From: Escherichia coli
Lineage (GTDB): Bacteria > Pseudomonadota > Gammaproteobacteria > Enterobacterales > Enterobacteriaceae
Direction: 5' to 3' (one strand)
Length of the DNA stretch: 64,000 nucleotides
Assembly (NCBI RefSeq): GCF_001677475.2
Contig: NZ_CP015229.1
The first letter of the stretch is position 1. Each line of letters begins with the position of its first letter. Made by a program: the position numbers and the translations under genes. Shown here in pieces: positions 10,854 through 55,720 of this stretch. The notes beneath the pieces are model-generated. The model saw only the letters and a list, made by a program, of their open reading frames with translations, did no database searches and was not told where the DNA came from.

Positions 10854-11342
10854 ATGAAGACCATTCTACCTGCAGTATTGTTTGCCGCTTTCGCCACCAC
10901 TTCCGCCTGGGCGGCAGAGAGCGTCCAGCCACTGGAAAAAATCGCGCCTTATCCACAAGCTGAAAAAGGCATGAAGCGTCAGGTGATTCAGTTAACTCCG
11001 CAAGAAGATGAATCTACCCTGAAAGTAGAACTGTTAATTGGTCAGACGCTGGAAGTCGACTGCAATTTGCATCGTCTCGGCGGGAAGCTGGAAAGCAAAA
11101 CGCTGGAAGGCTGGGGCTATGATTATTATGTCTTTGATAAAGTTAGCTCGCCGGTTTCGACGATGATGGCCTGCCCGGATGGCAAGAAAGAGAAGAAATT
11201 TGTCACCGCGTATTTGGGTGATGCCGGAATGCTGCGTTACAACAGCAAGCTGCCGATCGTGGTGTATACGCCAGACAATGTGGATGTGAAATACCGCATC
11301 TGGAAGGCGGAAGAGAAAATTGACAACGCGGTAGTTCGCTAA
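10854..11342 (+). CDS. eco: ecotin, periplasmic serine protease inhibitor
   Basis: Start taken at [20 protein letters not shown] (signal peptide) preceded by AAGGAAAG; ORF track N-terminal extension rejected. Confidence 0.92.
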
Positions 11343-11359
11343 ACTGCCGTGAAGTGCGG

Positions 11360-11486
11360 CACCCCGTAGGTCAGATAAGGCGGTTACGCCGCATCCGATC
11401 TAACGCCCAAGCCGGTTGCCTGATAAGACGCTGGCGCGTCTTATCAGCATAAGCCACATCCGGCATACCATGCCGGATGTGGCACA
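11360..11486. repeat. REP / BIME-type palindromic repeat cluster between eco and mqo
   Basis: Tandem GC-rich palindromes (cagataaggcggttacgccgcatccg; gcctgataagacgctggcgcgtcttatcag; catccggcataccatgccggatg). Confidence 0.75.
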
Positions 11487-15723: not shown

Positions 15724-16787
15724 TACCTCTCCTCATTCTCAGCTTCGCGGCGCAGCAGTTGCGCTTTGCGCGACGCGCCCCAGCGGTAACCTGAAAGCGA
15801 TCCATCACCGCGTACTACCCGATGACAGGGTATAACGATAGCCAGCTTGTTGGCGGCACAGGCACTGGCAACGGCCCGTACCGCTTTCGGTTTGCCGATG
15901 GCGTTCGCCAGTTGCTGATAACTGACGGTTTCACCACAAGGTATCGTGCGCAGTGCCTGCCAGACTTGTTGCTGAAAAGCAGTGCCGCGAATGTCCAGCG
16001 GTAACGTCAGCGGCGTATCGCGTTGATTGAGGCTGGCGATCACTTCACGCACATGTTGTTGAAACGTCAAATCGGCAGGCGCGTTGTCGGCAGCGGGAAA
16101 CATCTGCTGCAACTCGCTGATTAATGTCGCGTCATCATCGCCCAGCAATATCGCGCAAATCCCCCGCTCGCTTTCTGCCACCAGGCAACGGCCCAGCTCA
16201 CAATCAGCCAGCGCGTAACGCACCGCCATATTTTCGCCACCGTGACGGAATTGTTTAGCCGTCATGCCCAGCGTTTCGTCGGCTTTGCGGTAGTAACTGC
16301 TGCTGTCGGGGAATCCGGCGTTAAGAATAGATGTAGTCACGCTCTCCCCTTTCGCCAGCAATTCGCGCAAACGGCGAGCGCGCCAGGCCTGTTGCCAGGC
16401 TTTAGGCGTCATTCCGGTAGTCGCTTTAAACAACCGATGCAAATGAAATGGACTCATCGCCACCTGGTCGGCTAAGGCTTCCAGCGTTACAGGCGTTTCC
16501 TGTTCCAGAAGTCGGCAGGCGTGGGTAATTTTATCAAGGCGATGTTGCAGGGGATTGGCTTTGTCTGGCTGACAACGTTTGCAGGGACGAAAGCCAGCGG
16601 CAAGCGCCTCGCTGGCATTTGCGTAGAAGGAGACATTTTCCCGCAAGGCATGTCTGGCTCGGCAAGACGGACGGCAAAAGATACCCGTGGTGCGCACGGC
16701 GAAAACGAATTCGCCGTCGGCATTCGAGTCGCGGGCTAAGACAGATTGCCAGCGTTGATCGTCAGTTAAGCATGTGGCGTTTTTCAT
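15723..16787 (-). CDS. ada: bifunctional Ada regulator / O6-methylguanine-DNA methyltransferase
   Basis: N-terminal Cys cluster (FCRPSCR...CKRC), AraC-type HTH and C-terminal PCHRV active site; start ambiguous between tandem Met codons. Confidence 0.92.
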   Translation of the reverse strand: MKNATCLTDDQRWQSVLARDSNADGEFVFAVRTTGIFCRPSCRARHALRENVSFYANASEALAAGFRPCKRCQPDKANPLQHRLDKITHACRLLEQETPVTLEALADQVAMSPFHLHRLFKATTGMTPKAWQQAWRARRLRELLAKGESVTTSILNAGFPDSSSYYRKADETLGMTAKQFRHGGENMAVRYALADCELGRCLVAESERGICAILLGDDDATLISELQQMFPAADNAPADLTFQQHVREVIASLNQRDTPLTLPLDIRGTAFQQQVWQALRTIPCGETVSYQQLANAIGKPKAVRAVASACAANKLAIVIPCHRVVRGDGSLSGYRWGASRKAQLLRREAENEER

Positions 16788-16860
16788 CATCAGCTCCCTG
16801 GTTAAGGATAGCCTTTAGTCTGCCCGGTCACCATCACGCAAAAACCAACAATCTTGCGCT

Positions 16861-17916
16861 TTAATTTTTTTCGCTCACCAGGAAACTTTTAAACTGCGGC
16901 GACATCCAGGTTTTAAAACTATCGCCCTCTTTGGTGATCATATAAACCGCCAGCCCTTCCCGGCGAACGACTTCTTTGGCTTTCTCTGGCCCGAGCACCA
17001 TTAAGCCAGTATCCCAGGCGTCGGCTTCCAGCGCCGTCGGGGCAATCACCGTCACGGAGACCAGATTGTGTTCAATGGGACGCCCGGTTTGCGGATCGAT
17101 AACATGGGAAAGGCGTTTGCCGTCCAGTTCGTAATAGTTGCGATAGCTGCCGGAGGTGCTAATCCCGTGACCGTTGATATCCACCACGGCCTGAACCGCG
17201 TTTTCTTTATCGGTCGGTTTTTGGATCGCTACCCGCCACGGCTGGCCTTCACCGTTCATACCACGGCTATCCAGAGCACCACCAACTGACACCAGATAAC
17301 GTGAAATACCTTCCTGCTCCATCAAGCGTGCCAGGTGATCCGCCGCATAACCTTCACCGACGGTGGAGAGATCGACATATAAATCCGGCAGGTCTTTTTG
17401 CAGATATTGCTGATGCGACTGATTAATGACCGTCAGGTGCTGTAAGCCGGTTTTGGCTTTCATCGCGTCGATCTGTTCCTGGTTCGGGATTTGTACTGGC
17501 TGTTGTTCCGGGCCAAAGCCCCACAGATTCACCAGCGGCCCGACAGTAATATCCATCGCGCCATCGGTTTTGGCGCCAATGCGCAGCGAGGTGGTGATGA
17601 TATCGGCCATCGCTTCACTTACCGGCCACGGTGACAAACTTTTCGAATCGTTAAAGCGCATCAGCGCGGAGTCTTTTTTATAGGTCGAAAGCAGCTGATC
17701 GTCGGCGTCCAGCTGGGTCTGAATCTTTTCTTTAAGTTCGGCACTGCGTTTGGCGTCAATGCCCGGAATGCTGGCACGCCAGAAGGTACCCATGGTTTTG
17801 CCTTCGAGAACGGTAACTTCAATAGCGTGGGTTTTGGCGGGTTGTGGTTTTTGATCGCAACCAACAAAGAAGAGCGCGGCAGCCAGCAATGCCACGCGGG
17901 TAAAGCTTATTTCCAT
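16861..17916 (-). CDS. apbE: FAD:protein FMN transferase (lipoprotein ApbE)
   Basis: 351 aa ORF with lipoprotein signal (LFFVGC). Confidence 0.9.
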   Translation of the reverse strand: MEISFTRVALLAAALFFVGCDQKPQPAKTHAIEVTVLEGKTMGTFWRASIPGIDAKRSAELKEKIQTQLDADDQLLSTYKKDSALMRFNDSKSLSPWPVSEAMADIITTSLRIGAKTDGAMDITVGPLVNLWGFGPEQQPVQIPNQEQIDAMKAKTGLQHLTVINQSHQQYLQKDLPDLYVDLSTVGEGYAADHLARLMEQEGISRYLVSVGGALDSRGMNGEGQPWRVAIQKPTDKENAVQAVVDINGHGISTSGSYRNYYELDGKRLSHVIDPQTGRPIEHNLVSVTVIAPTALEADAWDTGLMVLGPEKAKEVVRREGLAVYMITKEGDSFKTWMSPQFKSFLVSEKN

Positions 17917-19856: not shown

Positions 19857-22529
19857 ATGCGTCAGAAAGAGACAACGGCCACGACCCGCTTTTCACTCCT
19901 ACCGGGGAGCATTACCCGCTTCTTTTTACTGTTGATCATTGTGTTACTGGTGACGATGGGTGTAATGGTACAAAGCGCCGTTAACGCCTGGCTGAAAGAT
20001 AAAAGTTACCAGATTGTCGACATTACCCACGCTATCCAAAAGCGCGTCGATACCTGGCGTTACGTGACCTGGCAGATCTACGACAACATTGCCGCGACGA
20101 CCTCCCCCTCCTCCGGCGAAGGTTTACAAGAGACGCGCCTGAAACAGGATGTCTACTATCTGGAAAAACCGCGCCGCAAAACGGAAGCGTTAATCTTTGG
20201 CTCTCACGACAACTCAACGCTTGAGATGACTCAACGGATGTCCACCTATCTGGACACATTGTGGGGCGCAGAAAATGTACCGTGGTCGATGTATTACCTG
20301 AATGGTCAGGATAACAGTCTGGTGCTGATCTCAACCCTGCCCCTCAAAGATCTCACCTCCGGATTTAAAGAATCGACCGTCAGTGACATTGTTGATTCAC
20401 GTCGTGCAGAGATGTTGCAACAGGCCAACGCCCTCGATGAACGCGAAAGTTTTTCTAACATGCGCCGCCTGGCCTGGCAGAACGGTCATTACTTTACCTT
20501 GCGTACCACGTTCAACCAGCCGGGACATCTGGCAACGGTCGTGGCTTTTGATCTGCCGATTAATGATTTGATCCCACCGGGTATGCCGCTGGACAGTTTC
20601 CGCCTTGAGCCAGACGCGACGGCAACGGGAGACAATAATAATGAGAAAGAAGGAACGGATAGCGTCAGTATCCACTTTAACAGTACGAAGATTGAAATCT
20701 CCTCGGCACTCAACTCTACCGATATGCGCCTGGTCTGGCAGGTTCCTTATGGCACCTTACTGCTGGATACGTTGCAAAACATTCTGCTGCCACTGCTGCT
20801 GAACATCGGTTTGCTGGCGCTGGCGTTATTTGGCTATACCACATTCCGCCATTTCTCCAGCCGCAGTACAGAAAGCGTCCCCAGCACGGCGGTCAATAAC
20901 GAATTGCGCATTTTACGGGCAATTAATGAAGAGATAGTCTCACTGCTGCCGCTCGGCCTGCTGGTTCACGATCAGGAATCGAACCGCACTGTCATAAGTA
21001 ACAAAATTGCCGATCATTTGCTGCCGCATTTGAATCTGCAAAACATCACCACCATGGCGGAACAGCATCAGGGGATTATTCAGGCGACGATCAATAACGA
21101 GCTGTATGAGATCCGCATGTTCCGCAGCCAGGTTGCGCCGCGCACACAAATTTTCATTATTCGCGATCAGGATCGCGAAGTGCTGGTAAACAAGAAACTC
21201 AAGCAGGCGCAGCGTCTGTATGAGAAAAACCAGCAGGGGCGGATGACCTTTATGAAAAACATTGGCGATGCGCTGAAAGAACCCGCACAGTCCCTGGCGG
21301 AGAGCGCGGCTAAACTCAACGCCCCGGAAAGCAAACAACTGGCGAATCAGGCAGATGTGCTGGTGCGATTGGTCGATGAAATACAGTTAGCGAACATGCT
21401 TGCGGACGATAGCTGGAAAAGTGAGACGGTGCTGTTCTCCGTGCAGGATTTAATTGATGAAGTTGTGCCTTCAGTGTTGCCTGCCATCAAGCGTAAAGGT
21501 CTGCAACTGCTGATTAACAATCATCTGAAAGCACACGATATGCGCCGCGGCGATCGCGATGCCTTACGACGTATTTTGCTGCTACTGATGCAATATGCCG
21601 TGACCTCAACGCAATTGGGAAAAATCACCCTTGAGGTTGATCAGGATGAGTCCTCCGAAGACCGCCTGACGTTCCGCATTCTGGACACCGGAGAAGGCGT
21701 AAGCATTCATGAAATGGATAATTTGCACTTCCCGTTTATCAACCAGACCCAAAACGATCGCTATGGCAAGGCGGACCCGCTGGCATTCTGGCTGAGCGAT
21801 CAACTGGCGCGTAAACTGGGCGGTCATTTAAACATCAAAACGCGGGATGGGCTTGGTACACGCTACTCTGTGCATATCAAAATGCTCGCAGCTGACCCGG
21901 AAGTTGAAGAGGAAGAAGAGCGTTTACTGGATGATGTCTGCGTAATGGTGGATGTTACTTCGGCAGAAATTCGGAATATTGTCACTCGCCAGTTAGAAAA
22001 TTGGGGTGCAACCTGTATCACACCCGATGAAAGATTAATTAGTCAAGATTATGATATCTTTTTAACGGATAATCCGTCTAATCTTACTGCCTCTGGCTTG
22101 CTTTTAAGCGATGATGAGTCTGGCGTACGGGAAATTGGGCCTGGTCAATTGTGCGTCAACTTCAATATGAGCAACGCTATGCAGGAAGCGGTCTTACAAT
22201 TAATTGAAGTGCAACTGGCGCAGGAAGAGGTGACAGAATCGCCTCTGGGCGGAGATGAAAATGCGCAACTCCATGCCAGCGGCTATTATGCGCTCTTTGT
22301 AGACACAGTACCGGATGATGTTAAGAGGCTGTATACTGAAGCAGCAACCAGTGACTTTGCTGCGTTAGCCCAAACGGCTCATCGTCTTAAAGGCGTATTT
22401 GCCATGCTAAATCTGGTACCCGGCAAGCAGTTATGTGAAACGCTGGAACATCTGATTCGTGAGAAGGATGTTCCAGGAATAGAAAAATACATCAGCGACA
22501 TTGACAGTTATGTCAAGAGCTTGCTGTAG
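19857..22529 (+). CDS. rcsD: phosphotransfer intermediate protein RcsD
   Basis: 890 aa ORF with two N-terminal TM segments and C-terminal HPt-like domain; upstream of rcsB. Confidence 0.93.
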   Translation: MRQKETTATTRFSLLPGSITRFFLLLIIVLLVTMGVMVQSAVNAWLKDKSYQIVDITHAIQKRVDTWRYVTWQIYDNIAATTSPSSGEGLQETRLKQDVYYLEKPRRKTEALIFGSHDNSTLEMTQRMSTYLDTLWGAENVPWSMYYLNGQDNSLVLISTLPLKDLTSGFKESTVSDIVDSRRAEMLQQANALDERESFSNMRRLAWQNGHYFTLRTTFNQPGHLATVVAFDLPINDLIPPGMPLDSFRLEPDATATGDNNNEKEGTDSVSIHFNSTKIEISSALNSTDMRLVWQVPYGTLLLDTLQNILLPLLLNIGLLALALFGYTTFRHFSSRSTESVPSTAVNNELRILRAINEEIVSLLPLGLLVHDQESNRTVISNKIADHLLPHLNLQNITTMAEQHQGIIQATINNELYEIRMFRSQVAPRTQIFIIRDQDREVLVNKKLKQAQRLYEKNQQGRMTFMKNIGDALKEPAQSLAESAAKLNAPESKQLANQADVLVRLVDEIQLANMLADDSWKSETVLFSVQDLIDEVVPSVLPAIKRKGLQLLINNHLKAHDMRRGDRDALRRILLLLMQYAVTSTQLGKITLEVDQDESSEDRLTFRILDTGEGVSIHEMDNLHFPFINQTQNDRYGKADPLAFWLSDQLARKLGGHLNIKTRDGLGTRYSVHIKMLAADPEVEEEEERLLDDVCVMVDVTSAEIRNIVTRQLENWGATCITPDERLISQDYDIFLTDNPSNLTASGLLLSDDESGVREIGPGQLCVNFNMSNAMQEAVLQLIEVQLAQEEVTESPLGGDENAQLHASGYYALFVDTVPDDVKRLYTEAATSDFAALAQTAHRLKGVFAMLNLVPGKQLCETLEHLIREKDVPGIEKYISDIDSYVKSLL

Positions 22530-22545
22530 CAAGGTAGCCTATTAC

Positions 22546-23196
22546 ATGAACAATATGAACGTAATTATTGCCGATGACCATCCGATAGTCTTGTTCGGTA
22601 TTCGCAAATCACTTGAGCAAATTGAGTGGGTGAATGTTGTCGGCGAATTTGAAGACTCTACAGCACTGATCAACAACCTGCCGAAACTGGATGCGCATGT
22701 GTTGATTACCGATCTCTCCATGCCTGGCGATAAGTACGGCGATGGCATTACCTTAATCAAGTACATCAAGCGCCATTTCCCAAGCCTGTCGATCATCGTT
22801 CTGACCATGAACAACAACCCGGCGATTCTTAGTGCGGTATTGGATCTGGATATCGAAGGGATCGTGCTGAAACAAGGTGCTCCGACCGATCTGCCGAAAG
22901 CTCTCGCCGCGCTGCAAAAAGGGAAGAAATTTACCCCGGAAAGCGTTTCTCGCCTGTTGGAAAAAATCAGTGCTGGTGGTTACGGTGACAAGCGTCTCTC
23001 GCCAAAAGAGAGTGAAGTTCTGCGCCTGTTTGCGGAAGGCTTCCTGGTGACCGAGATCGCTAAAAAGCTGAACCGCAGTATTAAAACCATCAGTAGCCAG
23101 AAGAAATCTGCGATGATGAAGCTGGGTGTCGAGAACGATATCGCCCTGCTGAATTATCTCTCTTCAGTGACGTTAAGTCCGGCAGATAAAGACTAA
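22546..23196 (+). CDS. rcsB: response regulator RcsB (LuxR/FixJ family)
   Basis: Start at MNNMNVIIADDHPIVLFG; receiver domain plus C-terminal HTH; track N-terminal extension rejected. Confidence 0.95.
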   Translation: MNNMNVIIADDHPIVLFGIRKSLEQIEWVNVVGEFEDSTALINNLPKLDAHVLITDLSMPGDKYGDGITLIKYIKRHFPSLSIIVLTMNNNPAILSAVLDLDIEGIVLKQGAPTDLPKALAALQKGKKFTPESVSRLLEKISAGGYGDKRLSPKESEVLRLFAEGFLVTEIAKKLNRSIKTISSQKKSAMMKLGVENDIALLNYLSSVTLSPADKD

Positions 23197-23200
23197 TCAC

Positions 23201-23286
23201 CTGTAGGCCAGATAAGACGCGTTAGTGTCTTATCTGGCATTTGCACCGATTGGCGGATGCGGCGTAAACGCCTTATCCGGCCTACG
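23201..23286. repeat. REP palindromic element between rcsB and rcsC
   Basis: ggccagataagacgcgttagtgtcttatctggc and ggcggatgcggcgtaaacgccttatccggcctac palindromes. Confidence 0.8.
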
Positions 23287-26131
23287 ATTCCCGCGATTTT
23301 CTGACCCTCTCGGCATATACCGTCAGCGTCTGTTTTATCACATCCAGCGTTACCGGCTTCGACAGGCAGCTGTCCATACCGGACTCCAGACACCGCTGCT
23401 TCTCTTCAGCCAACGCATTAGCAGTTACTCCGATTACCGGCAACGTCAGTCCCAACTGACGAATGCGTTGCGTCAAGCGGTAACCATCCATATTTGGCAT
23501 GTTGACGTCGCTAAGCACGATATCAATATTATTCTTGCTAAGTACATTAAGCGCATCGACGCCATCATTCGCGGTTTTACATTGATAGCCCAACGATCCC
23601 AACTGATCTGCCAGAAGACGCCGGTTAATCGGATGATCATCCACGACCAGAATCATCATATCGTCGTTATCGCTGACCGCTTTGTCCGTCGACGGCAGAG
23701 CGTTAGCAGGATCATCGCTCTCCATCTCGATCAAATAAATACGCGCCAACAATGCCGGTAGCTCATGCGGGGCAGCCACACTGTGTACCCACTCCCCTGG
23801 CGCTTTCTCCAGCGGAATACCAATATGGCGACGACAGAAGGTCACTACCGCTCTACCCTGCCATTTTTTACTCACTACCTCGTCAGTAATTAACACATCT
23901 TCGGGAGTCGGTTCCTGCCCTTCGTATGTTGTAACGACGATGCCGCTGCGCTGCAAACTGGTTTCCAGGAACTGACAGAGCGACGCATTGCGGACCGCCA
24001 GCCAGCAGCGTTTACCACTCAACCCTTCCACGCCTTTTTTCTGCGGGTACTGAGCGCCGTACAACGGAATACGCACGGTAAACTGGCTGCCCATTCCCGG
24101 TTCTGAATCTACCGAGATATCGCCGTCCATCATGCTGATCAGTTTTTCACAAATCGCCAGACCCAGACCGGTCCCCTGGAAGTTACGCTGTACGCCCGTT
24201 CCGACCTGGAAGAAGGGATCAAACAAGCGCACCACTTCTTTCGCCGGAATCCCCACGCCGGTATCGCGAACACGGATAGAGAGATAATCGCCATCAGCGC
24301 GAACATGCAAAACTATACAGCCGGTATCGGTGAATTTTATGGCGTTACTCAACAGATTGGAGATGACCTGCTGTAAACGCATCGGGTCGCCATTTAAGGC
24401 CACTGGCACATCCGGTTCAATAAAGCAGTACAAGCCTAGCTGCTTGCGTACCACCAGCGGTAAATAGTTGGCGGTGATGTGGTTCATCACTTCACGCGGT
24501 GAAAACTCACGCGGTTCGATCTTCAACTGTTCCGATTCAATCTTCGAGAAGTCGAGAATATCGCTGATAATTTTCAACAACAGACTGGAAGAGTTGTTCA
24601 TTGCCGTCACAAGACGATCGACGCCTTTCGGTAACTCTTTGGTTTGCAACAGATCCAGGTTACCGATAATGCCATACAGCGGCGTTCGCAGCTCATGACT
24701 GACGGTGGCAAGGAACATCGATTTTGACTGGCTCGCCTGTTCCGCTGCTTGTGCCATCTCCTGCAACGACTCTTCCATCTTCACGCGCGAAGAAACATCC
24801 ACCAGCACACAAATGGCCACGTTTTCATTACGATAGCGCGAATGGACGAAGCTGATTTGCAGATTGGTATTGTTGCTGGTCAGGACATCAACAAAATTGA
24901 CCTGCTGCCCACAGATAATTTGCGTCAGTCGTTGGCGATCCTCATGCGTAAGCATATTGAGATAGGTATGCGCCAGTTCGTTACTTAAAATATTGACGCC
25001 ATCAGCGGTACGTAAAATGCAGATACCTACTGGCGCGGAGGCGACAATCTTGCGATTAAACTGCTCATGTTCTTCCAGTCGCAAGGCGTCGCTTTCCGCC
25101 GGAATGAAAATACGCCGCTCGTACATCCGCGCGAGAGTAAACAATGCAGCTCCGGCAAGCACATTCAGCAAAATTGCGTTAAGGATCAACATGCGAATGC
25201 GTTCCAGCACCTTATCAACCGGCACCGAATAAACGATGCTTAGCGATGAGGGTGGCAGATTTTTCTTCAGCACCAGCTCCCGGAACCCTTCCGTATAGCC
25301 AAACCAGGAGCGTTCCTGCATCCAGCGAGGATCGCCCTTAATTTTACTTTCTGGTCCGGTAAGCGAAATCAGGGTATGACCATTTTCATCCAGAATGGTA
25401 ACCCCCATCGGCAACGTACCCGGTAAGAAAAAGTTCTCCATCCGGATGGTCTGCTCGACACCCAAAAGCGCCTGCAACCGGTTTGCCAGATAAACTGGCG
25501 TCAACGCGTAAAAATACCCGACGCCAGGGCGCGGACCTTCGCTGATCCAGAAGAGGTTACTGCCGCTATCATCTTGTGGTGCATTTCGATATTTATTGAT
25601 GCGTTCATGCAAAGCTTTCAACGCGGTATCGCGTTCCACTGGCATATCACGCAGACCGAAATTGGCCATGCAAAGGTTATCGCTGCCGATTAAAAATACC
25701 CGGTTGAGATCGTAAGCCGCAGAGAAATTATCGCGCCAGTAGCGCATAAACCACGCCAATGACTCCAGAGAGCCTCGCCAGGTGTTACTCATTGCGGAAC
25801 AATCGGAGTCGGCAAACAGCGGTTCAAACGCAGGCACATCCGCCTGCGTTTCTCGTCCACGCGGGGAAAGCACACCGTTTTCTGCCGATAAGCGATTTTC
25901 AGCTATGTACTTCAGCTCTTTCATCACATCAGAGGTACGTTGAATAAAGCGCTGAGCCTGATCGGAACTCAGATTAAATTCCTGACGAATTTCCGATTCT
26001 CGCTGATGTAACGCATTCACGATGTAAAAAACGGATGAAAAAGCAATCAACAGCCAGAGCACTAACGCCAATGCTCTGAACATGTAGCGCGAGGCTTTCA
26101 GGGTTGTACGAAAAGAAGCAAGGTATTTCAA
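23282..26131 (-). CDS. rcsC: hybrid sensor histidine kinase RcsC
   Basis: 949 aa ORF with HisKA H-box (SHELRTPL), ATPase domain and C-terminal receiver domain (VVDDHPINRRL). Confidence 0.95.
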   Translation of the reverse strand: MKYLASFRTTLKASRYMFRALALVLWLLIAFSSVFYIVNALHQRESEIRQEFNLSSDQAQRFIQRTSDVMKELKYIAENRLSAENGVLSPRGRETQADVPAFEPLFADSDCSAMSNTWRGSLESLAWFMRYWRDNFSAAYDLNRVFLIGSDNLCMANFGLRDMPVERDTALKALHERINKYRNAPQDDSGSNLFWISEGPRPGVGYFYALTPVYLANRLQALLGVEQTIRMENFFLPGTLPMGVTILDENGHTLISLTGPESKIKGDPRWMQERSWFGYTEGFRELVLKKNLPPSSLSIVYSVPVDKVLERIRMLILNAILLNVLAGAALFTLARMYERRIFIPAESDALRLEEHEQFNRKIVASAPVGICILRTADGVNILSNELAHTYLNMLTHEDRQRLTQIICGQQVNFVDVLTSNNTNLQISFVHSRYRNENVAICVLVDVSSRVKMEESLQEMAQAAEQASQSKSMFLATVSHELRTPLYGIIGNLDLLQTKELPKGVDRLVTAMNNSSSLLLKIISDILDFSKIESEQLKIEPREFSPREVMNHITANYLPLVVRKQLGLYCFIEPDVPVALNGDPMRLQQVISNLLSNAIKFTDTGCIVLHVRADGDYLSIRVRDTGVGIPAKEVVRLFDPFFQVGTGVQRNFQGTGLGLAICEKLISMMDGDISVDSEPGMGSQFTVRIPLYGAQYPQKKGVEGLSGKRCWLAVRNASLCQFLETSLQRSGIVVTTYEGQEPTPEDVLITDEVVSKKWQGRAVVTFCRRHIGIPLEKAPGEWVHSVAAPHELPALLARIYLIEMESDDPANALPSTDKAVSDNDDMMILVVDDHPINRRLLADQLGSLGYQCKTANDGVDALNVLSKNNIDIVLSDVNMPNMDGYRLTQRIRQLGLTLPVIGVTANALAEEKQRCLESGMDSCLSKPVTLDVIKQTLTVYAERVRKSRES

Positions 26132-26297: not shown

Positions 26298-28124
26298 ATG
26301 CATTATATGAAGTGGATTTATCCACGCCGCTTACGCAATCAAATGATCCTGATGGCAATCCTGATGGTCATTGTCCCAACGCTTACTATTGGTTATATCG
26401 TAGAAACGGAAGGACGTTCAGCAGTCTTATCTGAAAAAGAGAAAAAACTTTCTGCCGTGGTCAACCTGCTTAATCAGGCGCTAGGCAATCGCTACGATCT
26501 CTACATCGACTTACCGCGTGAGGAGCGTATCCGCGCATTAAATGCAGAACTTGCCCCCATTACCGAAAATATCACTCACGCCTTCCCTGGCATCGGCGCT
26601 GGTTATTACAACAAAACGCTGGATGCGATAATCACCTACGCGCCTTCAGCGCTATATCAGAATAATGTGGGCGTTACCATTGCCGCAGATCACCCTGGTC
26701 GCGAAGTCATGCGTACAAATACCCCTTTGGTTTATTCAGGCAGGCAGGTGCGCGGCGATATTTTGAATTCAATGATCCCCATTGAGCGTAATGGTGAAAT
26801 CCTCGGCTATATCTGGGCCAATGAATTAACCGAAGATATTCGCCGCCAGGCCTGGAAAATGGATGTGAGGATTATCATTGTGCTCACCGCCGGTTTGCTG
26901 ATAAGCCTGCTGTTGATTGTCCTTTTCTCCCGTCGCCTGAGCGCCAATATAGATATCATCACCGATGGCCTCTCGACTCTGGCACAAAATATTCCCACTC
27001 GATTACCACAATTGCCCGGTGAAATGGGGCAAATCAGTCAGAGTGTTAACAACCTCGCCCAGGCACTGCGTGAAACGCGGACACTTAACGATCTGATTAT
27101 TGAAAACGCTGCCGATGGCGTCATTGCCATCGACCGCCAGGGTGATGTAACCACCATGAACCCAGCAGCAGAAGTCATCACTGGCTATCAACGTCATGAA
27201 CTGGTAGGGCAGCCTTACTCCATGTTGTTCGACAATACTCAGTTCTATAGTCCAGTACTGGATACGCTGGAACATGGCACCGAACATGTGGCGCTGGAGA
27301 TCAGTTTTCCAGGCCGTGACCGCACCATTGAACTCAGTGTCACTACCAGTCGTATTCATAACACGCACGCTGAAATGATAGGTGCTTTGGTGATTTTCTC
27401 TGATTTAACTGCCCGCAAAGAAACCCAGCGCCGCATGGCGCAAGCAGAACGCCTCGCCACACTGGGTGAGCTGATGGCTGGCGTGGCGCATGAAGTCCGT
27501 AATCCGCTGACGGCTATTCGTGGTTATGTACAGATCTTGCGCCAACAAACCACTGACCCAATACATCAGGAATATCTGTCCGTAGTAATCAAAGAAATCG
27601 ACTCAATTAACAAAGTCATTCAGCAATTGCTCGATTTTTCACGTCCACGCCACAGTCAATGGCAACAAGTCAGCCTCAATGCATTGGTTGAAGAAACTCT
27701 GGTACTGGTACAAACCGCCGGCGTACAAGCGCGGGTCGACTTCATAAGCGAACTGGATAATGAATTAAGCCCGATTAACGCCGATCGTGAACTGCTCAAA
27801 CAGGTACTACTGAATATCCTGATCAATGCCGTCCAGGCTATCAGTGCACGAGGGAAAATTCGCATTCGAACCTGGCAGTACAGCGACTCACAACAGGCCA
27901 TTTCGATAGAGGACACCGGCTGTGGCATTGATCTCTCGCTGCAAAAAAAGATCTTCGATCCCTTTTTCACCACCAAAGCCTCAGGAACCGGGCTTGGTCT
28001 GGCGTTAAGTCAACGCATCATTAATGCCCATCAGGGTGATATTCGCGTCGCCAGTTTGCCGGGCTACGGCGCAACCTTCACGCTTATTTTACCGATCAAC
28101 CCACAGGGAAATCAGACTGTATGA
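26298..28124 (+). CDS. atoS: sensor histidine kinase AtoS
   Basis: Start at MHYMKWIYPRR; TM segments, PAS region, H-box (AHEVRNPLTAI) and G-boxes. Confidence 0.93.
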   Translation: MHYMKWIYPRRLRNQMILMAILMVIVPTLTIGYIVETEGRSAVLSEKEKKLSAVVNLLNQALGNRYDLYIDLPREERIRALNAELAPITENITHAFPGIGAGYYNKTLDAIITYAPSALYQNNVGVTIAADHPGREVMRTNTPLVYSGRQVRGDILNSMIPIERNGEILGYIWANELTEDIRRQAWKMDVRIIIVLTAGLLISLLLIVLFSRRLSANIDIITDGLSTLAQNIPTRLPQLPGEMGQISQSVNNLAQALRETRTLNDLIIENAADGVIAIDRQGDVTTMNPAAEVITGYQRHELVGQPYSMLFDNTQFYSPVLDTLEHGTEHVALEISFPGRDRTIELSVTTSRIHNTHAEMIGALVIFSDLTARKETQRRMAQAERLATLGELMAGVAHEVRNPLTAIRGYVQILRQQTTDPIHQEYLSVVIKEIDSINKVIQQLLDFSRPRHSQWQQVSLNALVEETLVLVQTAGVQARVDFISELDNELSPINADRELLKQVLLNILINAVQAISARGKIRIRTWQYSDSQQAISIEDTGCGIDLSLQKKIFDPFFTTKASGTGLGLALSQRIINAHQGDIRVASLPGYGATFTLILPINPQGNQTV

Positions 28125-29506
28125 CTGCTATTAATCGCATCCTTATTGTGGATGATGAAGATAATGTTCGCCGTATGCTGAGCACCGCTTTTGCACTACA
28201 AGGTTTCGAAACACATTGTGCGAACAACGGACGCACCGCATTACACCTGTTTGCTGATATTCACCCTGACGTGGTGTTGATGGATATCCGCATGCCAGAG
28301 TTGGACGGCATCAAGGCACTAAAGGAGATGCGCAGTCATGAGACCCGGACACCCGTTATTCTGATGACGGCCTATGCTGAAGTGGAAACCGCCGTCGAAG
28401 CACTACGCTGCGGAGCCTTCGACTATGTTATCAAACCGTTTGATCTCGATGAGTTGAATTTAATCGTTCAGCGCGCTTTACAACTCCAGTCAATGAAAAA
28501 AGAGATCCGTCATCTGCACCAGGCACTGAGCACCAGCTGGCAATGGGGGCACATTCTCACCAACAGCCCGGCGATGATGGACATCTGCAAAGACACCGCC
28601 AAAATTGCCCTTTCTCAGGCCAGCGTCTTGATTAGCGGTGAAAGCGGCACCGGGAAAGAGTTGATTGCCAGAGCGATTCACTACAATTCGCGGCGGGCAA
28701 AGGGGCCGTTCATTAAAGTCAACTGCGCGGCGCTGCCGGAATCGTTGCTCGAAAGTGAACTGTTTGGTCATGAAAAAGGTGCATTTACTGGTGCACAAAC
28801 CTTGCGTCAGGGATTATTTGAACGTGCCAACGAAGGTACTCTGCTCCTCGACGAAATTGGCGAAATGCCGCTGGTACTGCAAGCCAAATTACTACGCATT
28901 CTGCAGGAACGGGAATTTGAACGGATTGGCGGCCATCAGACCATAAAAGTTGATATCCGCATCATTGCTGCCACCAACCGTGACTTGCAGGCAATGGTAA
29001 AAGAAGGCACCTTCCGTGAAGATCTCTTTTATCGCCTTAACGTTATTCATTTAATACTGCCGCCTCTGCGCGATCGCCGGGAAGATATTTCCCTGTTAGC
29101 TAATCACTTTTTGCAAAAATTCAGTAGTGAGAATCAGCGCGATATTATCGACATCGATCCGATGGCAATGTCACTGCTTACCGCCTGGTCATGGCCGGGA
29201 AATATTCGAGAGCTTTCCAACGTCATTGAACGCGCCGTCGTAATGAACTCAGGTCCGATCATTTTTTCTGAGGATCTTCCGCCACAGATTCGTCAGCCAG
29301 TCTGTAATGCTGGTGAGGCAAAAACAGCCCCTGTCGGTGAGCGTAATTTAAAAGAGGAAATTAAACGCGTCGAAAAACGCATCATTATGGAAGTGCTGGA
29401 ACAACAGGACGGAAACCGAACCCGCACCGCTTTGATGCTGGGCATCAGTCGCCGTGCATTGATGTATAAACTCCAGGAATACGGTATCGATCCGGCGGAT
29501 GTATAA
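28121..29506 (+). CDS. atoC: sigma-54-dependent response regulator AtoC
   Basis: Receiver domain, AAA+ sigma54-interaction domain (GESGTGKE, GAFTGA) and C-terminal HTH; 4 nt overlap with atoS. Confidence 0.95.
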   Translation: MTAINRILIVDDEDNVRRMLSTAFALQGFETHCANNGRTALHLFADIHPDVVLMDIRMPELDGIKALKEMRSHETRTPVILMTAYAEVETAVEALRCGAFDYVIKPFDLDELNLIVQRALQLQSMKKEIRHLHQALSTSWQWGHILTNSPAMMDICKDTAKIALSQASVLISGESGTGKELIARAIHYNSRRAKGPFIKVNCAALPESLLESELFGHEKGAFTGAQTLRQGLFERANEGTLLLDEIGEMPLVLQAKLLRILQEREFERIGGHQTIKVDIRIIAATNRDLQAMVKEGTFREDLFYRLNVIHLILPPLRDRREDISLLANHFLQKFSSENQRDIIDIDPMAMSLLTAWSWPGNIRELSNVIERAVVMNSGPIIFSEDLPPQIRQPVCNAGEAKTAPVGERNLKEEIKRVEKRIIMEVLEQQDGNRTRTALMLGISRRALMYKLQEYGIDPADV

Positions 29507-29517
29507 CACCAAAACTT

Positions 29518-29558
29518 GCTATGCAGAAATTTGCACAGTGCGCAATTTTCTGCATAGC
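29518..29558. promoter_or_regulatory. AtoC binding palindrome (two roughly 20 bp inverted repeats)
   Basis: gctatgcagaaatttgcaca / gtgcgcaattttctgcatagc near-perfect inverted repeat upstream of atoD. Confidence 0.8.
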
Positions 29559-29639
29559 CAATCATCCTCCTTCTTAATCCACACCTTATTTATTCTTTTA
29601 TATTCAATCAGTTAAAAACAACATCAAATATTCTCATTC

Positions 29640-29655
29640 TGGCACTCCCCTTGCT
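29640..29655 (+). promoter_or_regulatory. sigma-54 (-24/-12) promoter of atoDAEB
   Basis: TGGCAC-tcccc-TTGCT matches TGGCAC-N5-TTGCW, about 45 nt upstream of atoD start. Confidence 0.8.
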
Positions 29656-29700
29656 ATTCCCTGACTGTACCCACAACGGTGTATGCAAGAGGGATAAATA

Positions 29701-30363
29701 ATGAAAACAAAATTGATGACATTACAAGACGCCTCCGGCTTCTTTCGTGACGGCATGACCATCATGGTGGGCGGATTTATGGGGATTGGCACTCCATCCC
29801 GCCTGGTTGAAGCATTACTGGAATCTGGTGTTCGCGACCTGACATTGATAGCCAATGATACCGCGTTTGTTGATACCGGCATCGGCCCGCTCATCGTCAA
29901 TGGTCGAGTCCGCAAAGTAATTGCGTCACATATCGGCACCAACCCGGAAACAGGTCGGCGCATGATATCTGGTGAGATGGACGTCGTTCTGGTGCCGCAA
30001 GGTACGCTAATCGAGCAAATTCGCTGTGGTGGAGCTGGACTTGGTGGTTTTCTCACCCCAACCGGTGTCGGCACCGTCGTAGAGGAAGGCAAACAGACGC
30101 TGACACTCGACGGCAAAACCTGGCTGCTTGAACGCCCACTGCGCGCCGACCTGGCGCTCATTCGCGCTCATCGTTGCGACACACTTGGCAACCTGACCTA
30201 TCAACTTAGCGCCCGCAACTTTAACCCCCTGATTGCCCTTGCGGCTGATATCACGCTGGTGGAGCCAGATGAACTGGTCGAAGTCGGCGAGCTGCAACCT
30301 GACCATATTGTCACCCCTGGTGCCGTTATCGACCACATCATCGTTTCACAGGAGAGCAAATAA
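29701..30363 (+). CDS. atoD: acetate CoA-transferase alpha subunit
   Basis: 220 aa ORF; CoA-transferase family; operon order. Confidence 0.93.
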
Positions 30364-31013
30364 TGGATGCGAAACAACGTATTGCACGCCGTGTGGCACA
30401 AGAGCTTCGTGATGGTGACATCGTGAATCTGGGCATTGGTCTGCCGACGATGGTCGCCAACTATTTGCCAGAAGGCATTCATATCACTCTGCAATCGGAA
30501 AACGGCTTCCTCGGTTTAGGCCCGGTCACGACAGCGCATCCAGATCTGGTTAACGCAGGCGGACAACCATGCGGCGTTTTACCCGGCGCAGCCATGTTTG
30601 ACAGCGCCATGTCATTTGCGCTGATCCGTGGCGGTCATATTGATGCCTGCGTGCTCGGTGGTTTGCAGGTAGACGAAGAAGCCAACCTCGCGAACTGGGT
30701 AGTGCCTGGAAAAATGGTGCCCGGTATGGGTGGCGCGATGGATCTGGTGACCGGGGCGCGCAAAGTGATCATTGCCATGGAACATTGCGCCAAAGATGGT
30801 TCACCGAAAATTTTGCGCCGCTGCACCATGCCGCTCACTGCGCAACACGCGGTGCATATGCTGGTCACTGAACTGGCTGTCTTTCGTTTCATTGACGGCA
30901 AAATGTGGCTCACCGAAATTGCCGACGGGTGTGATTTAGCCACCGTGCGTGCCAAAACCGAAGCTCAGTTTGAAGTAGCCGCCGATCTGAATACGCAACG
31001 GGGTGATTTATGA
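30363..31013 (+). CDS. atoA: acetate CoA-transferase beta subunit
   Basis: 216 aa ORF abutting atoD. Confidence 0.93.
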   Translation: MDAKQRIARRVAQELRDGDIVNLGIGLPTMVANYLPEGIHITLQSENGFLGLGPVTTAHPDLVNAGGQPCGVLPGAAMFDSAMSFALIRGGHIDACVLGGLQVDEEANLANWVVPGKMVPGMGGAMDLVTGARKVIIAMEHCAKDGSPKILRRCTMPLTAQHAVHMLVTELAVFRFIDGKMWLTEIADGCDLATVRAKTEAQFEVAADLNTQRGDL

Positions 31014-32332
31014 TTGGTCGCATCTCGCGTTTTATGACGCGCTTTGTCAGCCGGTGGCTTCCCGATCCTCTGATCTTTGCCATGTTGCTGACGTTGCTAA
31101 CGTTCGTGATCGCGCTTTGGTTAACACCACAAACGCCGATCAGCATGGTGAAAATGTGGGGTGACGGTTTCTGGAACTTGCTGGCGTTCGGTATGCAGAT
31201 GGCGCTGATCATCGTTACCGGTCATGCCCTTGCCAGCTCTGCTCCGGTGAAAAGCTTGCTGCGGACTGCCGCCTCCGCCGCAAAGACGCCCGTACAGGGC
31301 GTCATGCTGGTCACTTTCTTCGGTTCAGTCGCTTGTGTCATCAACTGGGGATTTGGTCTAGTTGTCGGCGCAATGTTCGCCCGTGAAGTCGCCCGGCGAG
31401 TACCTGGCTCTGATTATCCGTTGCTCATTGCCTGCGCCTACATTGGTTTTCTCACCTGGGGTGGCGGCTTCTCTGGCTCAATGCCTCTGTTGGCTGCAAC
31501 ACCGGGCAACCCGGTTGAGCATATCGCCGGGCTTATCCCGGTGGGCGATACTCTGTTCAGTGGTTTTAACATTTTCATCACTGTGGCATTGATTGTGGTG
31601 ATGCCATTTATCACCCGCATGATGATGCCAAAACCGTCTGACGTGGTGAGTATCGATCCGAAACTACTCATGGAAGAGGCTGATTTTCAGAAGCAGCTAC
31701 CGAAAGATGCTCCACCGTCCGAGCGACTGGAAGAAAGCCGCATTCTGACGTTGATCATCGGCGCACTCGGTATCGCTTACCTGGCAATGTACTTCAGCGA
31801 ACATGGCTTCAACATCACCATCAATACCGTCAACCTGATGTTTATGATTGCGGGTCTGCTGCTACATAAAACGCCAATGGCTTATATGCGAGCTATCAGC
31901 GCGGCAGCACGCAGTACCGCCGGTATTCTGGTGCAATTCCCCTTCTACGCCGGGATCCAACTGATGATGGAGCACTCCGGTCTGGGCGGACTCATTACCG
32001 AATTCTTTATCAATGTTGCGAACAAAGACACCTTCCCGGTAATGACCTTCTTTAGTTCTGCACTGATTAACTTCGCCGTTCCGTCTGGTGGCGGTCACTG
32101 GGTTATTCAGGGACCTTTCGTGATACCCGCAGCCCAGGCGCTGGGCGCTGATCTCGGTAAATCGGTAATGGCGATCGCCTACGGCGAGCAATGGATGAAC
32201 ATGGCACAACCGTTCTGGGCGCTGCCAGCACTGGCAATCGCCGGGCTCGGTGTCCGCGACATCATGGGCTATTGCATCACTGCCCTGCTCTTCTCTGGCG
32301 TCATTTTCGTCATTGGTTTAACGCTGTTCTGA
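31010..32332 (+). CDS. atoE: short-chain fatty acid transporter
   Basis: 440 aa polytopic membrane ORF. Confidence 0.92.
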   Translation: MIGRISRFMTRFVSRWLPDPLIFAMLLTLLTFVIALWLTPQTPISMVKMWGDGFWNLLAFGMQMALIIVTGHALASSAPVKSLLRTAASAAKTPVQGVMLVTFFGSVACVINWGFGLVVGAMFAREVARRVPGSDYPLLIACAYIGFLTWGGGFSGSMPLLAATPGNPVEHIAGLIPVGDTLFSGFNIFITVALIVVMPFITRMMMPKPSDVVSIDPKLLMEEADFQKQLPKDAPPSERLEESRILTLIIGALGIAYLAMYFSEHGFNITINTVNLMFMIAGLLLHKTPMAYMRAISAAARSTAGILVQFPFYAGIQLMMEHSGLGGLITEFFINVANKDTFPVMTFFSSALINFAVPSGGGHWVIQGPFVIPAAQALGADLGKSVMAIAYGEQWMNMAQPFWALPALAIAGLGVRDIMGYCITALLFSGVIFVIGLTLF

Positions 32333-32362: not shown

Positions 32363-33547
32363 ATGAAAAATTGTGTCATCGTCAGTGCGGTACGTACTGC
32401 CATCGGTAGTTTTAATGGTTCACTCGCCTCCACCAGCGCCATCGATCTGGGGGCAACAGTAATTCAGGCCGCCATTGAACGCGCAAAACTCGATTCACAA
32501 CACGTCGATGAAGTGATTATGGGTAACGTATTGCAGGCCGGGCTGGGGCAAAATCCGGCTCGTCAGGCACTGCTAAAAAGCGGACTGGCAGAAACGGTGT
32601 GCGGATTTACGGTCAACAAAGTATGTGGTTCTGGTCTGAAAAGCGTGGCGCTTGCCGCCCAGGCAATTCAGGCCGGTCAGGCACAGAGCATCGTAGCGGG
32701 TGGAATGGAGAACATGAGTTTAGCGCCCTATTTACTCGATGCAAAAGCACGCTCTGGTTATCGTCTTGGAGACGGACAGGTTTATGACGTGATCCTGCGC
32801 GATGGCCTGATGTGCGCCACTCACGGTTATCATATGGGTATTACCGCCGAGAACGTTGCCAAAGAGTACGGAATTACCCGTGAAATGCAGGATGAACTGG
32901 CGCTACATTCACAGCGTAAAGCGGCAGCAGCCATTGAGTCCGGTGCTTTTACCGTCGAAATTGTCCCGGTAAATGTTGTCACACGGAAGAAAAACATCGT
33001 CTTCGATCGCGATGAATTCCCGAAAGTAGATTCTACTGCAGAAGCTCTTGCTGCATTGCGCCCGGCCTTCGACAAAGCCGGAACGGTCACCGCCGGGAAC
33101 GCGTCTGGCATTAACGATGGGGCTGCCGCACTGGTGATTATGGAAGAATCTGCGGCGCTGGCGGCAGGCCTAAAACCACTGGCACGCATTAAAAGCTATG
33201 CCAGCGGTGGCGTGCTCCCTGCATTGATGGGTATGGGGCCAGTACCTGCCACGCAAAAAGCGTTACAACTGGCGGGGCTGCAACTGGCAGACATTGATCT
33301 CATCGAAGCCAATGAAGCATTTGCCGCGCAGTTCCTTGCCGTTGGGAAAACCCTGGGCTTTGATCCTGAGAAAGTGAATGTCAACGGCGGAGCCATCGCG
33401 CTGGGGCATCCTATCGGCGCCAGCGGTGCACGTATTCTGGTCACACTATTACATGCAATGCAGGCTCGCGATAAAACGCTGGGTCTGGCGACGCTGTGCA
33501 TTGGCGGCGGTCAGGGAATTGCGATGGTGATTGAACGATTGAATTAA
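32363..33547 (+). CDS. atoB: acetyl-CoA acetyltransferase (thiolase II)
   Basis: 394 aa thiolase with active-site Cys in [10 protein letters not shown] and C-terminal CIGGGQG. Confidence 0.95.
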
Positions 33548-33557
33548 CCAACAAAAA

Positions 33558-33590
33558 CGCCCGATAGCGAAAGTCATCGGGCGTTTTCTT
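33558..33590 (+). terminator. rho-independent terminator after atoB
   Basis: Stem cgcccgat / atcgggcg with loop, followed by ttttctt. Confidence 0.8.
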
Positions 33591-33620
33591 AAACATCGAC
33601 AGTGAAAGTAACCTCATTAA

Positions 33621-34157
33621 TTACCAGTCAAAACTTTTCACCAGCGTCAGCTCGCCAGCATTACGCATCGGTACAATAAATGTTTCCTGTTTCTCATTGA
33701 CCGATCCTTCATCGGTGATCAGCGTCAGTTGGGCAGTGGTTAATTCCGTTTCGCTGCGTCCGCCATAGTAGTTGATATACACCTGATAGCGCCCGTGAAC
33801 TGGCGCTGGCATGGCGAAAATCTCGGGGCCGTACCCCGTCGTGACATCCATATCCAGTGCGCCACTGTTTTTCAGCACCGTGTTACCGTACCAGGCGTGT
33901 TCGCCATCAGGCGTGACAACATGGAGATCGAGATCGGTATTGTCCGTATCCCACGAGAGAACCAGCCGTAAACGTGCACGAATCGTTCCTGTACCCGGCG
34001 TTGAGTAAAACTGCATTTTTTGTCGGCTTTGCCCATCCGGGCTGATGACCTGCACGCTGTTGCTGCCTTCAATGCCCTGACGCCAGCGGAAAGTAGGGCT
34101 ATTGCACCAAAACCTACAAGGCCATAAAACCGCCAGCCTTTCGCCTTTTTTAACCAC
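33621..34157 (-). pseudogene. probable 5'-truncated remnant of yfaP (DUF2135-family); rest of the yfaA-yfaP locus absent
   Basis: 178 aa ORF whose stop abuts the atoB terminator in the orientation expected for yfaP; no signal peptide or credible start context; the 675 bp space between the atoB and gyrA terminators is too short for a full-length gene of this family. Confidence 0.45.
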
Positions 34158-34266
34158 TCATTGCCACATTCCTTGTGTAAAGCCAGCCATTTTTTATGGG
34201 CGATGCACAACTTTATCGCGTCCTAATACGACAAAAGCCCAGACTTTGCAGCCTGGACTTTTCAAT

Positions 34267-34290
34267 TCAAAAAAGGGAGATGGCTCCCTT
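34267..34290 (-). terminator. rho-independent terminator of gyrA
   Basis: Hairpin gggagccatctccc followed by U6 on minus strand, about 20 nt past the gyrA stop. Confidence 0.8.
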
Positions 34291-34309
34291 TTGACATGAA
34301 TAAATAAAA

Positions 34310-36937
34310 TTATTCTTCTTCTGGCTCGTCGTCAACGTCCACTTCCGGAGCGATTTCATCGTCCCCTTCCGCAGCACTGCCGTCGATGGTATCCAGATCT
34401 TCCTCGTCAACCGGTTCAGCAACACGTTGCAGACCCACTACGTTTTCATCTTCCGCAGTACGGATGAGGATCACGCCCTGGGTGTTACGGCCCACGATGC
34501 TGATTTCTGAAACGCGAGTACGTACCAGCGTACCGGCATCGGTGATCATCATGATCTGGTCGCAATCATCTACCTGCACCGCGCCAACCACTAAACCGTT
34601 ACGTTCGGTGACCTTGATGGAGATAACCCCTTTCGTCGCACGTGACTTGGTTGGGTATTCCGCCACTGCGGTACGTTTACCATAACCGTTCTGCGTTGCG
34701 GTGAGGATTGCGCCATCGCCACGAGGCACGATCAGAGAGACGACTTTATCGCCTTCGCCTAAGCGAATACCGCGCACACCTGTGGTATTGCAGCCCATCG
34801 CACGGACAGAAGACTCTTTAAAGCGCACCACTTTACCTTCGGCGGAGAACAGCATTACTTCGTCTTCGCCACTGGTCAGGTCAACGCCGATCAGCTCATC
34901 GCCTTCAACCAGCTTGATCGCCACTTTACCGGCGGTACGCAGACGGTTGAATTCGGTGAGGACGGTTTTCTTCACAGTACCGTTAGCCGTCGCCATGAAG
35001 ACTTTCACGCCTTCTTCAAACTCGGTCACTGGCAGGATCGCGGTGATACGTTCGTCCTGCTCCAGGGGCAGCAGGTTGACGATCGGACGACCACGTGCAC
35101 CACGAGAGGCTTCCGGCAACTGATAGACTTTCATCGAATAGACACGGCCACGGCTGGAGAAGCACAGGATATGGTCGTGGGTGTTCGCCACCAGCAGTCG
35201 GTCGATAAAGTCTTCTTCTTTAATACGTGCGGCAGATTTACCTTTCCCGCCACGACGCTGCGCTTCGTATTCCGAAAGCGGCTGGTACTTCACGTAGCCC
35301 TGGTGAGAGAGCGTCACGACCACATCTTCCTGAGTGATCAGATCTTCCAGGTTGATGTCTGCGCTGTTGGCAGTGATTTCAGTACGACGTTTGTCGCCGA
35401 ACTGTTCACGAACCAGTTCCAGCTCTTCGCGGATCACTTCCATCAGACGATCGGCGCTACCCAGAATACGCAGCAGTTCCGCGATCTGATCCAGCAGCTC
35501 TTTGTATTCATCGAGCAGTTTTTCGTGCTCAAGGCCGGTCAGTTTCTGCAAACGCAGATCCAGAATTGCCTGAGCTTGCTGTTCGGTCAGGTAGTACAGA
35601 CCGTCACGCACGCCGAACTCTGGCTCCAGCCATTCCGGACGCGCAGCATCGTCACCCGCACGCTCCAGCATCGCGGCAACGTTGCCCAGCTGCCACGGAT
35701 TAGCAACCAGCGCGGTTTTCGCTTCTGCAGGCGTCGGCGCATGACGGATCAGTTCAATGATCGGGTCGATGTTCGCCAGTGCTACGGCTAATGCTTCAAG
35801 GATATGAGCACGATCGCGGGCTTTACGCAGTTCGAAAATGGTACGACGGGTCACCACTTCGCGACGGTGACGGACAAACGCAGCGATAATGTCTTTCAGG
35901 TTCATGATCTTCGGCTGACCATGGTGCAATGCCACCATGTTGATACCGAAAGAAACCTGCAACTGGGTCTGGGAGTAGAGGTTGTTGAGCACCACTTCAC
36001 CGACCGCATCGCGTTTAACTTCAATCACGATGCGCATACCGTCTTTGTCAGACTCGTCACGCAGCGCGCTGATGCCTTCCACGCGTTTTTCTTTTACCAG
36101 TTCCGCAATCTTCTCGATCAGGCGCGCTTTGTTCACCTGATACGGAATTTCGTGGACGATAATGGTTTCACGCCCGGTTTTGGCGTCAACCTCCACTTCA
36201 GCACGGGCGCGGATATATACCTTGCCGCGACCGGTACGGTAAGCTTCTTCAATACCGCGACGACCGTTAATGATTGCCGCCGTCGGGAAGTCCGGCCCCG
36301 GGATGTGTTCCATCAGCCCTTCAATGCTGATGTCTTCATCATCGATATACGCCAGACAACCGTTGATGACTTCCGTCAGGTTGTGCGGCGGGATGTTGGT
36401 TGCCATACCTACGGCGATACCGGAAGAACCGTTCACCAGCAGGTTAGGAATTTTGGTTGGCATGACGTCGGGAATTTTTTCCGTGCCGTCATAGTTATCA
36501 ACGAAATCGACCGTCTCTTTTTCGAGATCGGCCATCAGTTCATGGGCAATTTTCGCCAGACGGATTTCCGTATAACGCATTGCCGCCGCAGAGTCGCCGT
36601 CGATGGAACCGAAGTTACCCTGACCGTCTACCAGCATGTAACGCAGCGAGAATGGCTGCGCCATACGGACGATCGTGTCATAAACCGCCGAGTCACCATG
36701 GGGATGGTATTTACCGATTACGTCACCAACGACACGGGCAGATTTTTTATAGGCTTTGTTCCAGTCATTGCCTAGTACGTTCATGGCGTAAAGTACGCGA
36801 CGGTGTACCGGCTTCAGGCCATCTCGGACATCTGGCAGCGCACGGCCAACAATGACCGACATCGCATAATCCAGATAGGAGCTCTTCAGCTCTTCCTCAA
36901 TGTTGACCGGTGTAATTTCTCTCGCAAGGTCGCTCAT
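34310..36937 (-). CDS. gyrA: DNA gyrase subunit A
   Basis: 875 aa ORF with [48 protein letters not shown]-terminus, QRDR region ([10 protein letters not shown]) and acidic C-terminal tail. Confidence 0.97.
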
Positions 36938-48716: not shown

Positions 48717-48903
48717 TACTGTACATTATAAACTGCATTACAATTTATTATTGAGCCCTATTCATACTGTTTAAAGAATAACAATACCCAGTGTTAGCTT
48801 TCCTAACAAATGAGTTTTACGCAAATATGTTGGCATCTTTTTTAACAGGATGCTCAGGTGAATGAATAGAATAACCGGTAGTAGCATTATTTCGCTTTAG
48901 CTG

Positions 48904-51648: not shown

Positions 51649-55713
<4,065 letters not shown>

Positions 55714-55720
55714 TCTTCAC

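Follow-up and report, generated by a model that had tools for sequence, protein, structure and literature searches.

In Escherichia coli K-12, the sensor kinase AtoS senses acetoacetate and phosphorylates the response regulator AtoC. The AtoC footprint reportedly obtained by Matta et al. in 2007 is said to extend from −146 to −107 relative to the start site, with IHF being required. The system resembles the IHF-looped, enhancer-dependent promoters of the NtrC family, such as glnHp2 and Klebsiella nifH, sharing with them an upstream dyad bound about 100–150 bp from the start by a receiver-AAA+-HTH_8 activator, a spacer that is A+T-rich and bendable, and the GG-N10-GC geometry; what differs is that the operator sequence described here is AtoC-specific and the signal is acetoacetate, received via AtoS.

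The AtoC sites verified at atoD are GCTATGCAGAAATTTGCACA on the plus strand, at −184 to −165, and GCTATGCAGAAAATTGCGCA on the minus strand, at −163 to −144, both counted from the atoD start (PMC3118216, Table 5). The two inverted 20-bp sites make up a verified 40-bp palindrome which governs acetoacetate inducibility and sigma-54-dependent expression, with AtoC binding at the palindrome confirmed by ChIP (PMC3118216). In genomic SELEX, RpoN holoenzyme alone binds the K-12 spacer between atoC and atoD (PMC8743547).

Here we describe the corresponding region in a 64,000-nt stretch of an E. coli genome (contig NZ_CP015229.1), referred to below as the window. We are very confident that the region represents the atoDAEB control region of Escherichia, comprising the AtoC upstream activating sequence and a sigma-54 promoter, for which an activation mechanism can be proposed. 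The element is already known: it is the textbook K-12 control region, real but ordinary. In this strain, the AtoSC-atoDAEB module is complete and both its operator and its sigma-54 promoter are unaltered, a result of little importance beyond annotation.

Comparison with the K-12 control region

Both the palindrome (41 bp) and the promoter element (16 bp) are base-identical to those of the K-12 atoDAEB promoter region (Matta et al. 2007, J Bacteriol 189:6324; Pilalis et al. 2011, PMC3118216). The region is flanked by the K-12 genes in their K-12 order, and only two substitutions distinguish its leader and Shine-Dalgarno sequence from those of K-12. The architecture described for AtoSC control of ato, which an earlier note on this DNA had recognized here, is present in both of its elements, and both published AtoC half-sites (PMC3118216, Table 5) occur exactly in the window. 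The difference from K-12, at about 97% identity across the locus, lies in the spacer between operator and promoter, which differs at 18 positions and is shorter by one nucleotide. In K-12 MG1655, the half-site offsets equal the published values exactly; in the window, where the spacer has lost one base, each offset is smaller by 1 nt, with the operator lying that much closer to atoD.

Table 1. Positions of the control elements and genes of the ato locus, and of the fimbrial genes found elsewhere in the window
Feature	Positions	Strand	Description
atoS	26298-28124	+	Sensor histidine kinase, 608 aa; NF008468 AtoS equivalog, 994.7 bits (cut-off 646)
atoC	28121-29506	+	Sigma-54-dependent response regulator (bacterial enhancer-binding protein); NF008469 equivalog, 1000.6 bits (cut-off 714)
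AtoC half-site 1 (palindrome left arm)	29518-29537	+	GCTATGCAGAAATTTGCACA; identical to the published verified site and to K-12
AtoC half-site 2 (palindrome right arm)	29539-29558	−	GCTATGCAGAAAATTGCGCA on the minus strand; identical to the published verified site and to K-12
A+T-rich spacer, predicted to loop	29559-29639	+	81 nt; 82 nt in K-12
Candidate IHF site	29602-29614	+	ATTCAATCAGTTA; WATCAANNNNTTR with one mismatch
Sigma-54 −24/−12 promoter element	29640-29655	+	TGGCACTCCCCTTGCT; GG at 29641-29642, GC at 29653-29654
Predicted transcription start	29664-29666	+	10–12 nt downstream of the −12 GC, the usual sigma-54 geometry
Shine-Dalgarno sequence of atoD	29688-29695	+	AAGAGGGA
atoD	29701-30363	+	Acetate CoA-transferase alpha subunit; NF007394 equivalog, 444.4 bits (cut-off 315)
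atoA	30363-31013	+	CoA-transferase beta subunit; TIGR02428 (subunit B family), 309.3 bits (cut-off 243.55)
atoE	31010-32332	+	Short-chain fatty acid transporter; TIGR00366, 749.2 bits (cut-off 575.75)
atoB	32363-33547	+	Acetyl-CoA acetyltransferase (thiolase II); TIGR01930, 491.2 bits (cut-off 240.55)
Fimbrial subunit	56086-56676		
PapD-like chaperone	56734-57438		
Usher	57449-59986		
Second fimbrial protein	59964-61037		

Operator palindrome and sigma-54 promoter

The repeat finder identified a 41-bp inverted repeat at 29518-29558, reading GCTATGCAGAAATTTGCACA-G-TGCGCAATTTTCTGCATAGC on the plus strand, in which two 20-nt arms, complementary at 18 of 20 positions (90%), flank a single central base. 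When the 64 kb were scanned exhaustively for inverted repeats whose arms match at 18/20 or better across a gap of 0–3 nt, this one alone was returned, and 20 shuffled windows contained no such repeat. The half-site pattern is likewise confined to the two arms in the window, at an expectation of 0.00. The palindrome lies in the 194-nt gap (29507-29700) between the stop codon of atoC (TAA, 29504-29506) and the ATG of atoD at 29701, starting 11 nt past the atoC stop. Its centre at 29538 is about 127 nt upstream of the predicted transcription start, within the distance of about 100–150 bp expected for this class of promoter.

The promoter pattern TGGCAC-N5-TTGCW has one match in the window, on the plus strand, where 0.16 were expected; at least one match was found in 14 of 100 shuffles, so that the hexamer pair alone is only mildly unlikely to arise by chance. 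What makes the element non-random is its position and strand, within the 194-nt atoC-atoD gap and facing atoD, 45 nt ahead of the atoD ATG. The earlier note had proposed a near-perfect 41-bp inverted repeat about 80 nt upstream of a canonical TGGCAC-N5-TTGCT element, the two lying within 29518-29655. All of this holds: the repeat is unique in the window, the sigma-54 element is the single match, the distance from 29558 to 29640 amounts to 81 nt, and the given interval brackets palindrome and element exactly.

A search for sigma-70-like promoters in 29200-29900 found none. The footprint coordinates reported by Matta et al. would place the start of transcription about 37 nt before the ATG, near 29664, consistent with the GC at 29653-29654.

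Genes of the locus

The genes were assigned by NCBIfam cut-offs, with AtoB passing the acetyl-CoA C-acyltransferase subfamily model. For atoS, the start was taken as the K-12 ATG; a GTG at 26286 lengthens the mechanical open reading frame. atoS, atoC and atoDAEB are all full length. The six proteins all have their K-12 lengths, with 9 amino acid differences in AtoS, 3 in AtoC, 2 in AtoD, 3 in AtoA, none in AtoE and 14 in AtoB.

The activator that such a promoter requires, AtoC with its receiver, AAA+ (GAFTGA) and HTH_8 domains, and the kinase AtoS are both encoded next door. The Pfam domains of AtoC are Response_reg (residues 7-115), Sigma54_activat (145-311), AAA_lid_14 (317-394) and HTH_8 (415-454), and the protein retains D55, H73, the Walker A motif GESGTGKE (173) and the GAFTGA motif (220). 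As it differs from K-12 AtoC only by M61L, V400A and E430D, the last of these inside HTH_8, residue I129 is unchanged and the I129S substitution is absent; I129S is the constitutive AtoC allele of strain LS5218 (PMC5699524).

Conservation across strains

To compare the elements of the gap, we aligned its sequence from eight strains in all (the present one, K-12 and six further E. coli strains), with E69 and CUVM53 excluded from the column counts. The palindrome shows no differences from K-12 in 41 positions and two variable columns among the eight strains, and the −24/−12 element shows no differences in 16 positions and no variable columns. The leader has two differences from K-12 and two variable columns. 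In the spacer, by contrast with the two elements, 18 of 82 columns (22%) differ from K-12, the 1-nt deletion included, and 27 are variable. Operator and promoter element together thus have 2 variable columns of 57, as against 27 of 82 in the spacer (Fisher p = 4e-5 for the window versus K-12 and 1e-5 for the variable columns). Divergence at four-fold-degenerate sites of the ato genes ranges from 4.5 to 26%, with a mean of 11.6%. The invariance of the two elements, set against the 18 of 82 differing spacer columns and the 11.6% four-fold divergence, indicates that purifying selection acts on exactly the operator and the −24/−12 element, with the spacer evolving roughly at the neutral rate. This combination gives a clean phylogenetic footprint of the published architecture and opens no new question.

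Only one stretch of the spacer is invariant in the eight-strain alignment, the island TATTCAAT-N-AGTTAAA at 29601-29616, and its single variable base falls within the degenerate NNNN part of the IHF consensus. Matches to this consensus with one mismatch occur in the window at chance frequency (63 found versus 57 expected), and it is for this reason that we put 29602-29614 forward as a reasonable candidate for an IHF site and no more firmly than that.

The ato locus is present in 3,923 of 5,426 complete E. coli genomes, about 28% being without it. Of the 5,426 genomes, 3,542 contain the 41-mer unchanged and 168 more contain it with one mismatch, in counts from a megablast search whose 28-nt word misses central mismatches, e.g. 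in strain NIPH17_0036. Across 3,710 E. coli genomes, the 41-mer occurs at a median of one place per genome, and in the records examined it always lies in the atoC-atoD gap. When a degenerate form of the palindrome was searched for in 100,044 species-representative genomes, a single one matched, that of E. coli E69; other genera either do not have an operator of this form or have sites that differ at the fixed positions.

Among the public records found, that of E. coli E69 (CP089930.1) comes nearest, being 98.1% identical to the window over the 8.1 kb of the ato locus. Its gap has an 81-nt spacer as here, of nearly the same sequence, with two substitutions. Its right arm reads AAATTT where the window and K-12 have AATTTT, which brings the arm complementarity in E69 to 19/20.

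Natural inactivating lesions of the locus were also seen. In E. coli CUVM53, a deletion extends from just after TGGCACTCC into atoD, so that the −12 element and the 5′ end of atoD are lost, and in isolate TKEC21-59 an IS1 insertion inside atoC truncates the gene. Given these lesions, an intact control region is the common, though not the universal, state.

Proposed mechanism of activation

Taken together with the K-12 literature, the arrangement suggests the following sequence of events. Upon sensing acetoacetate, AtoS would phosphorylate AtoC, and an oligomer of AtoC~P would assemble on the upstream activating sequence that the paired, inverted 20-bp half-sites (29518-29558) would provide. 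With IHF probably bending it near 29602-29614, the 81-nt A+T-rich spacer would then loop AtoC towards sigma-54 RNA polymerase waiting in a closed complex at TGGCAC-N5-TTGCT (29640-29655). ATP hydrolysis by the AAA+ domain of AtoC, acting through its GAFTGA loop, would open the promoter, and transcription would start at about 29664-29666 and proceed through atoD, atoA, atoE and atoB.

What we infer from this arrangement is binding, looping, the role of IHF, the site of transcription initiation and the inducibility of the module in this strain, and we found no sequence evidence that contradicts a reading in terms of AtoC and sigma-54. At the level of sequence, the interpretation given in the earlier note is supported: the module is predicted to be regulatable in this strain, and the strain probably has acetoacetate-inducible short-chain fatty acid catabolism. 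Inducibility is kept at the level of a prediction because the window does not include rpoN or ihfA/ihfB and because its spacer has one nucleotide fewer than that of K-12. The shorter spacer, together with its 22% sequence difference, also means that the upstream activating sequence and the promoter do not have exactly the helical phasing seen in K-12.

Alternative readings

The palindrome could instead, or in addition, act mainly as RNA, forming a 3′ hairpin of the atoSC transcript that terminates transcription or stabilizes the mRNA. On the plus strand, it folds into a hairpin of 12+4 pairs with a free energy of −23.3 kcal/mol (z = −6.0 versus shuffles), it lies directly 3′ of atoC, and no other plus-strand terminator is predicted between atoC and atoD. 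However, any long palindrome would fold in this way, the stem is followed by CCAATCATCCTCC rather than by a T/U run, and the hairpin is missing from the terminator predictions. The arm sequence itself, beyond mere complementarity, is fixed across strains, and the two arm mismatches are kept in most genomes, which fits recognition by a protein better than the demands of a stem. AtoC binding to the arms is, moreover, published (PMC3118216). We therefore regard a mainly RNA-based function as unlikely. A rho-independent terminator was considered separately and rejected as the main function, the hairpin being stable but having an A+T-rich stem and no T run and going uncalled by the scan. An Rfam scan of 28500-30500 found no family at gathering score, its sole match being a snoRNA inside atoC at chance level (E = 0.92; 19.9 bits versus a gathering score of 45).

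A second role alongside that of operator may be envisaged, in which the atoSC mRNA would end in a hairpin formed by the palindrome, and AtoC bound to the DNA would also block transcription from running on from atoSC into atoDAEB. This idea arises because the palindrome starts 11 nt past the stop codon of atoC, in a gap for which no terminator is predicted. Separately, the shorter and 22% diverged spacer allele of this lineage may set an induction threshold different from that in K-12. We consider this reading improbable.

Somewhat less probable still is that the elements are intact and yet the module is non-inducible in this strain, either through the spacer change or through defects elsewhere, in rpoN, ihf or the AtoS substitutions. 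The 1-nt deletion and the substitutions that together distinguish 18 of 82 spacer columns from K-12 could be read in this way, as could the nine substitutions in AtoS and the E430D exchange within HTH_8 of AtoC, and natural ato lesions are known in other strains. Against this, the nearest public relative, E69, shares the 81-nt length and nearly the same spacer, implying that the spacer allele is inherited within the lineage and is not a private lesion, and the candidate IHF island is conserved. The substitutions are all conservative, every gene has its full length and AtoE matches its K-12 counterpart at 100% identity, which argues for continued selection on the operon.

That the palindrome belongs to a family of dispersed repeats, either REP/BIME-like or transposon ends, with the adjacent sigma-54 motif a coincidence, we consider extremely improbable and reject, since its only recommendation is that the palindrome is long, inverted and intergenic, whereas it is single-copy in the window, occupies a median of one site per genome in the 3,710 E. 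coli genomes and is matched in degenerate form by only one of the 100,044 species representatives.

Lineage and other features of the window

Identity across the window is only about 96–98%, both with K-12 and with the best-matching complete RefSeq E. coli genome. The window is syntenic with the K-12 segment around 2.293–2.365 Mb, apart from several indels. Identity to any complete RefSeq E. coli genome reaches at most 96.6% in the ato locus and at most 97.3% in the gyrA region, and on this basis we assign the window to a divergent Escherichia lineage, in which the K-12 operator and promoter are nevertheless kept exactly.

Divergence from K-12 is uneven along the window. Divergence at four-fold sites spans a five-fold range within the ato genes, from 4.5% in atoS to 26% in atoB, which suggests that the window may be a recombination mosaic. 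The 3′ end of rcsD together with rcsB (21370-23292) is 99.4% identical to K-12, above the rest of the window.

Directly downstream of the ato operon, at 33548-34310 with the junction at about 34070, the window has an 8.7-kb deletion relative to K-12, which takes the 5′ part of yfaP, all of yfaQ, yfaS (alpha-2-macroglobulin) and yfaT, and most of yfaA. As a result of this deletion, gyrA follows almost directly after atoB. A fusion open reading frame of 178 aa spans the junction on the minus strand (33621-34157), with the DUF2135 domain kept; the junction is contiguous in none of the 5,426 complete E. coli genomes.

Further differences from K-12 were observed at three places. At 11339-11447, about 450 bp that K-12 has between eco and mqo (16501-16956 of the K-12 stretch compared) is either missing or rearranged. 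Between yfaH and glpQ, at 47189-48904, there is a 1.7-kb insertion containing an open reading frame of 368 aa with a TTG start (47610-48716) and no Pfam match. At 55703-61113, a chaperone-usher fimbrial operon stands in place of the K-12 genes rpnE-ypaA-yfaU-yfaV-rhmD-yfaX (L-rhamnonate).
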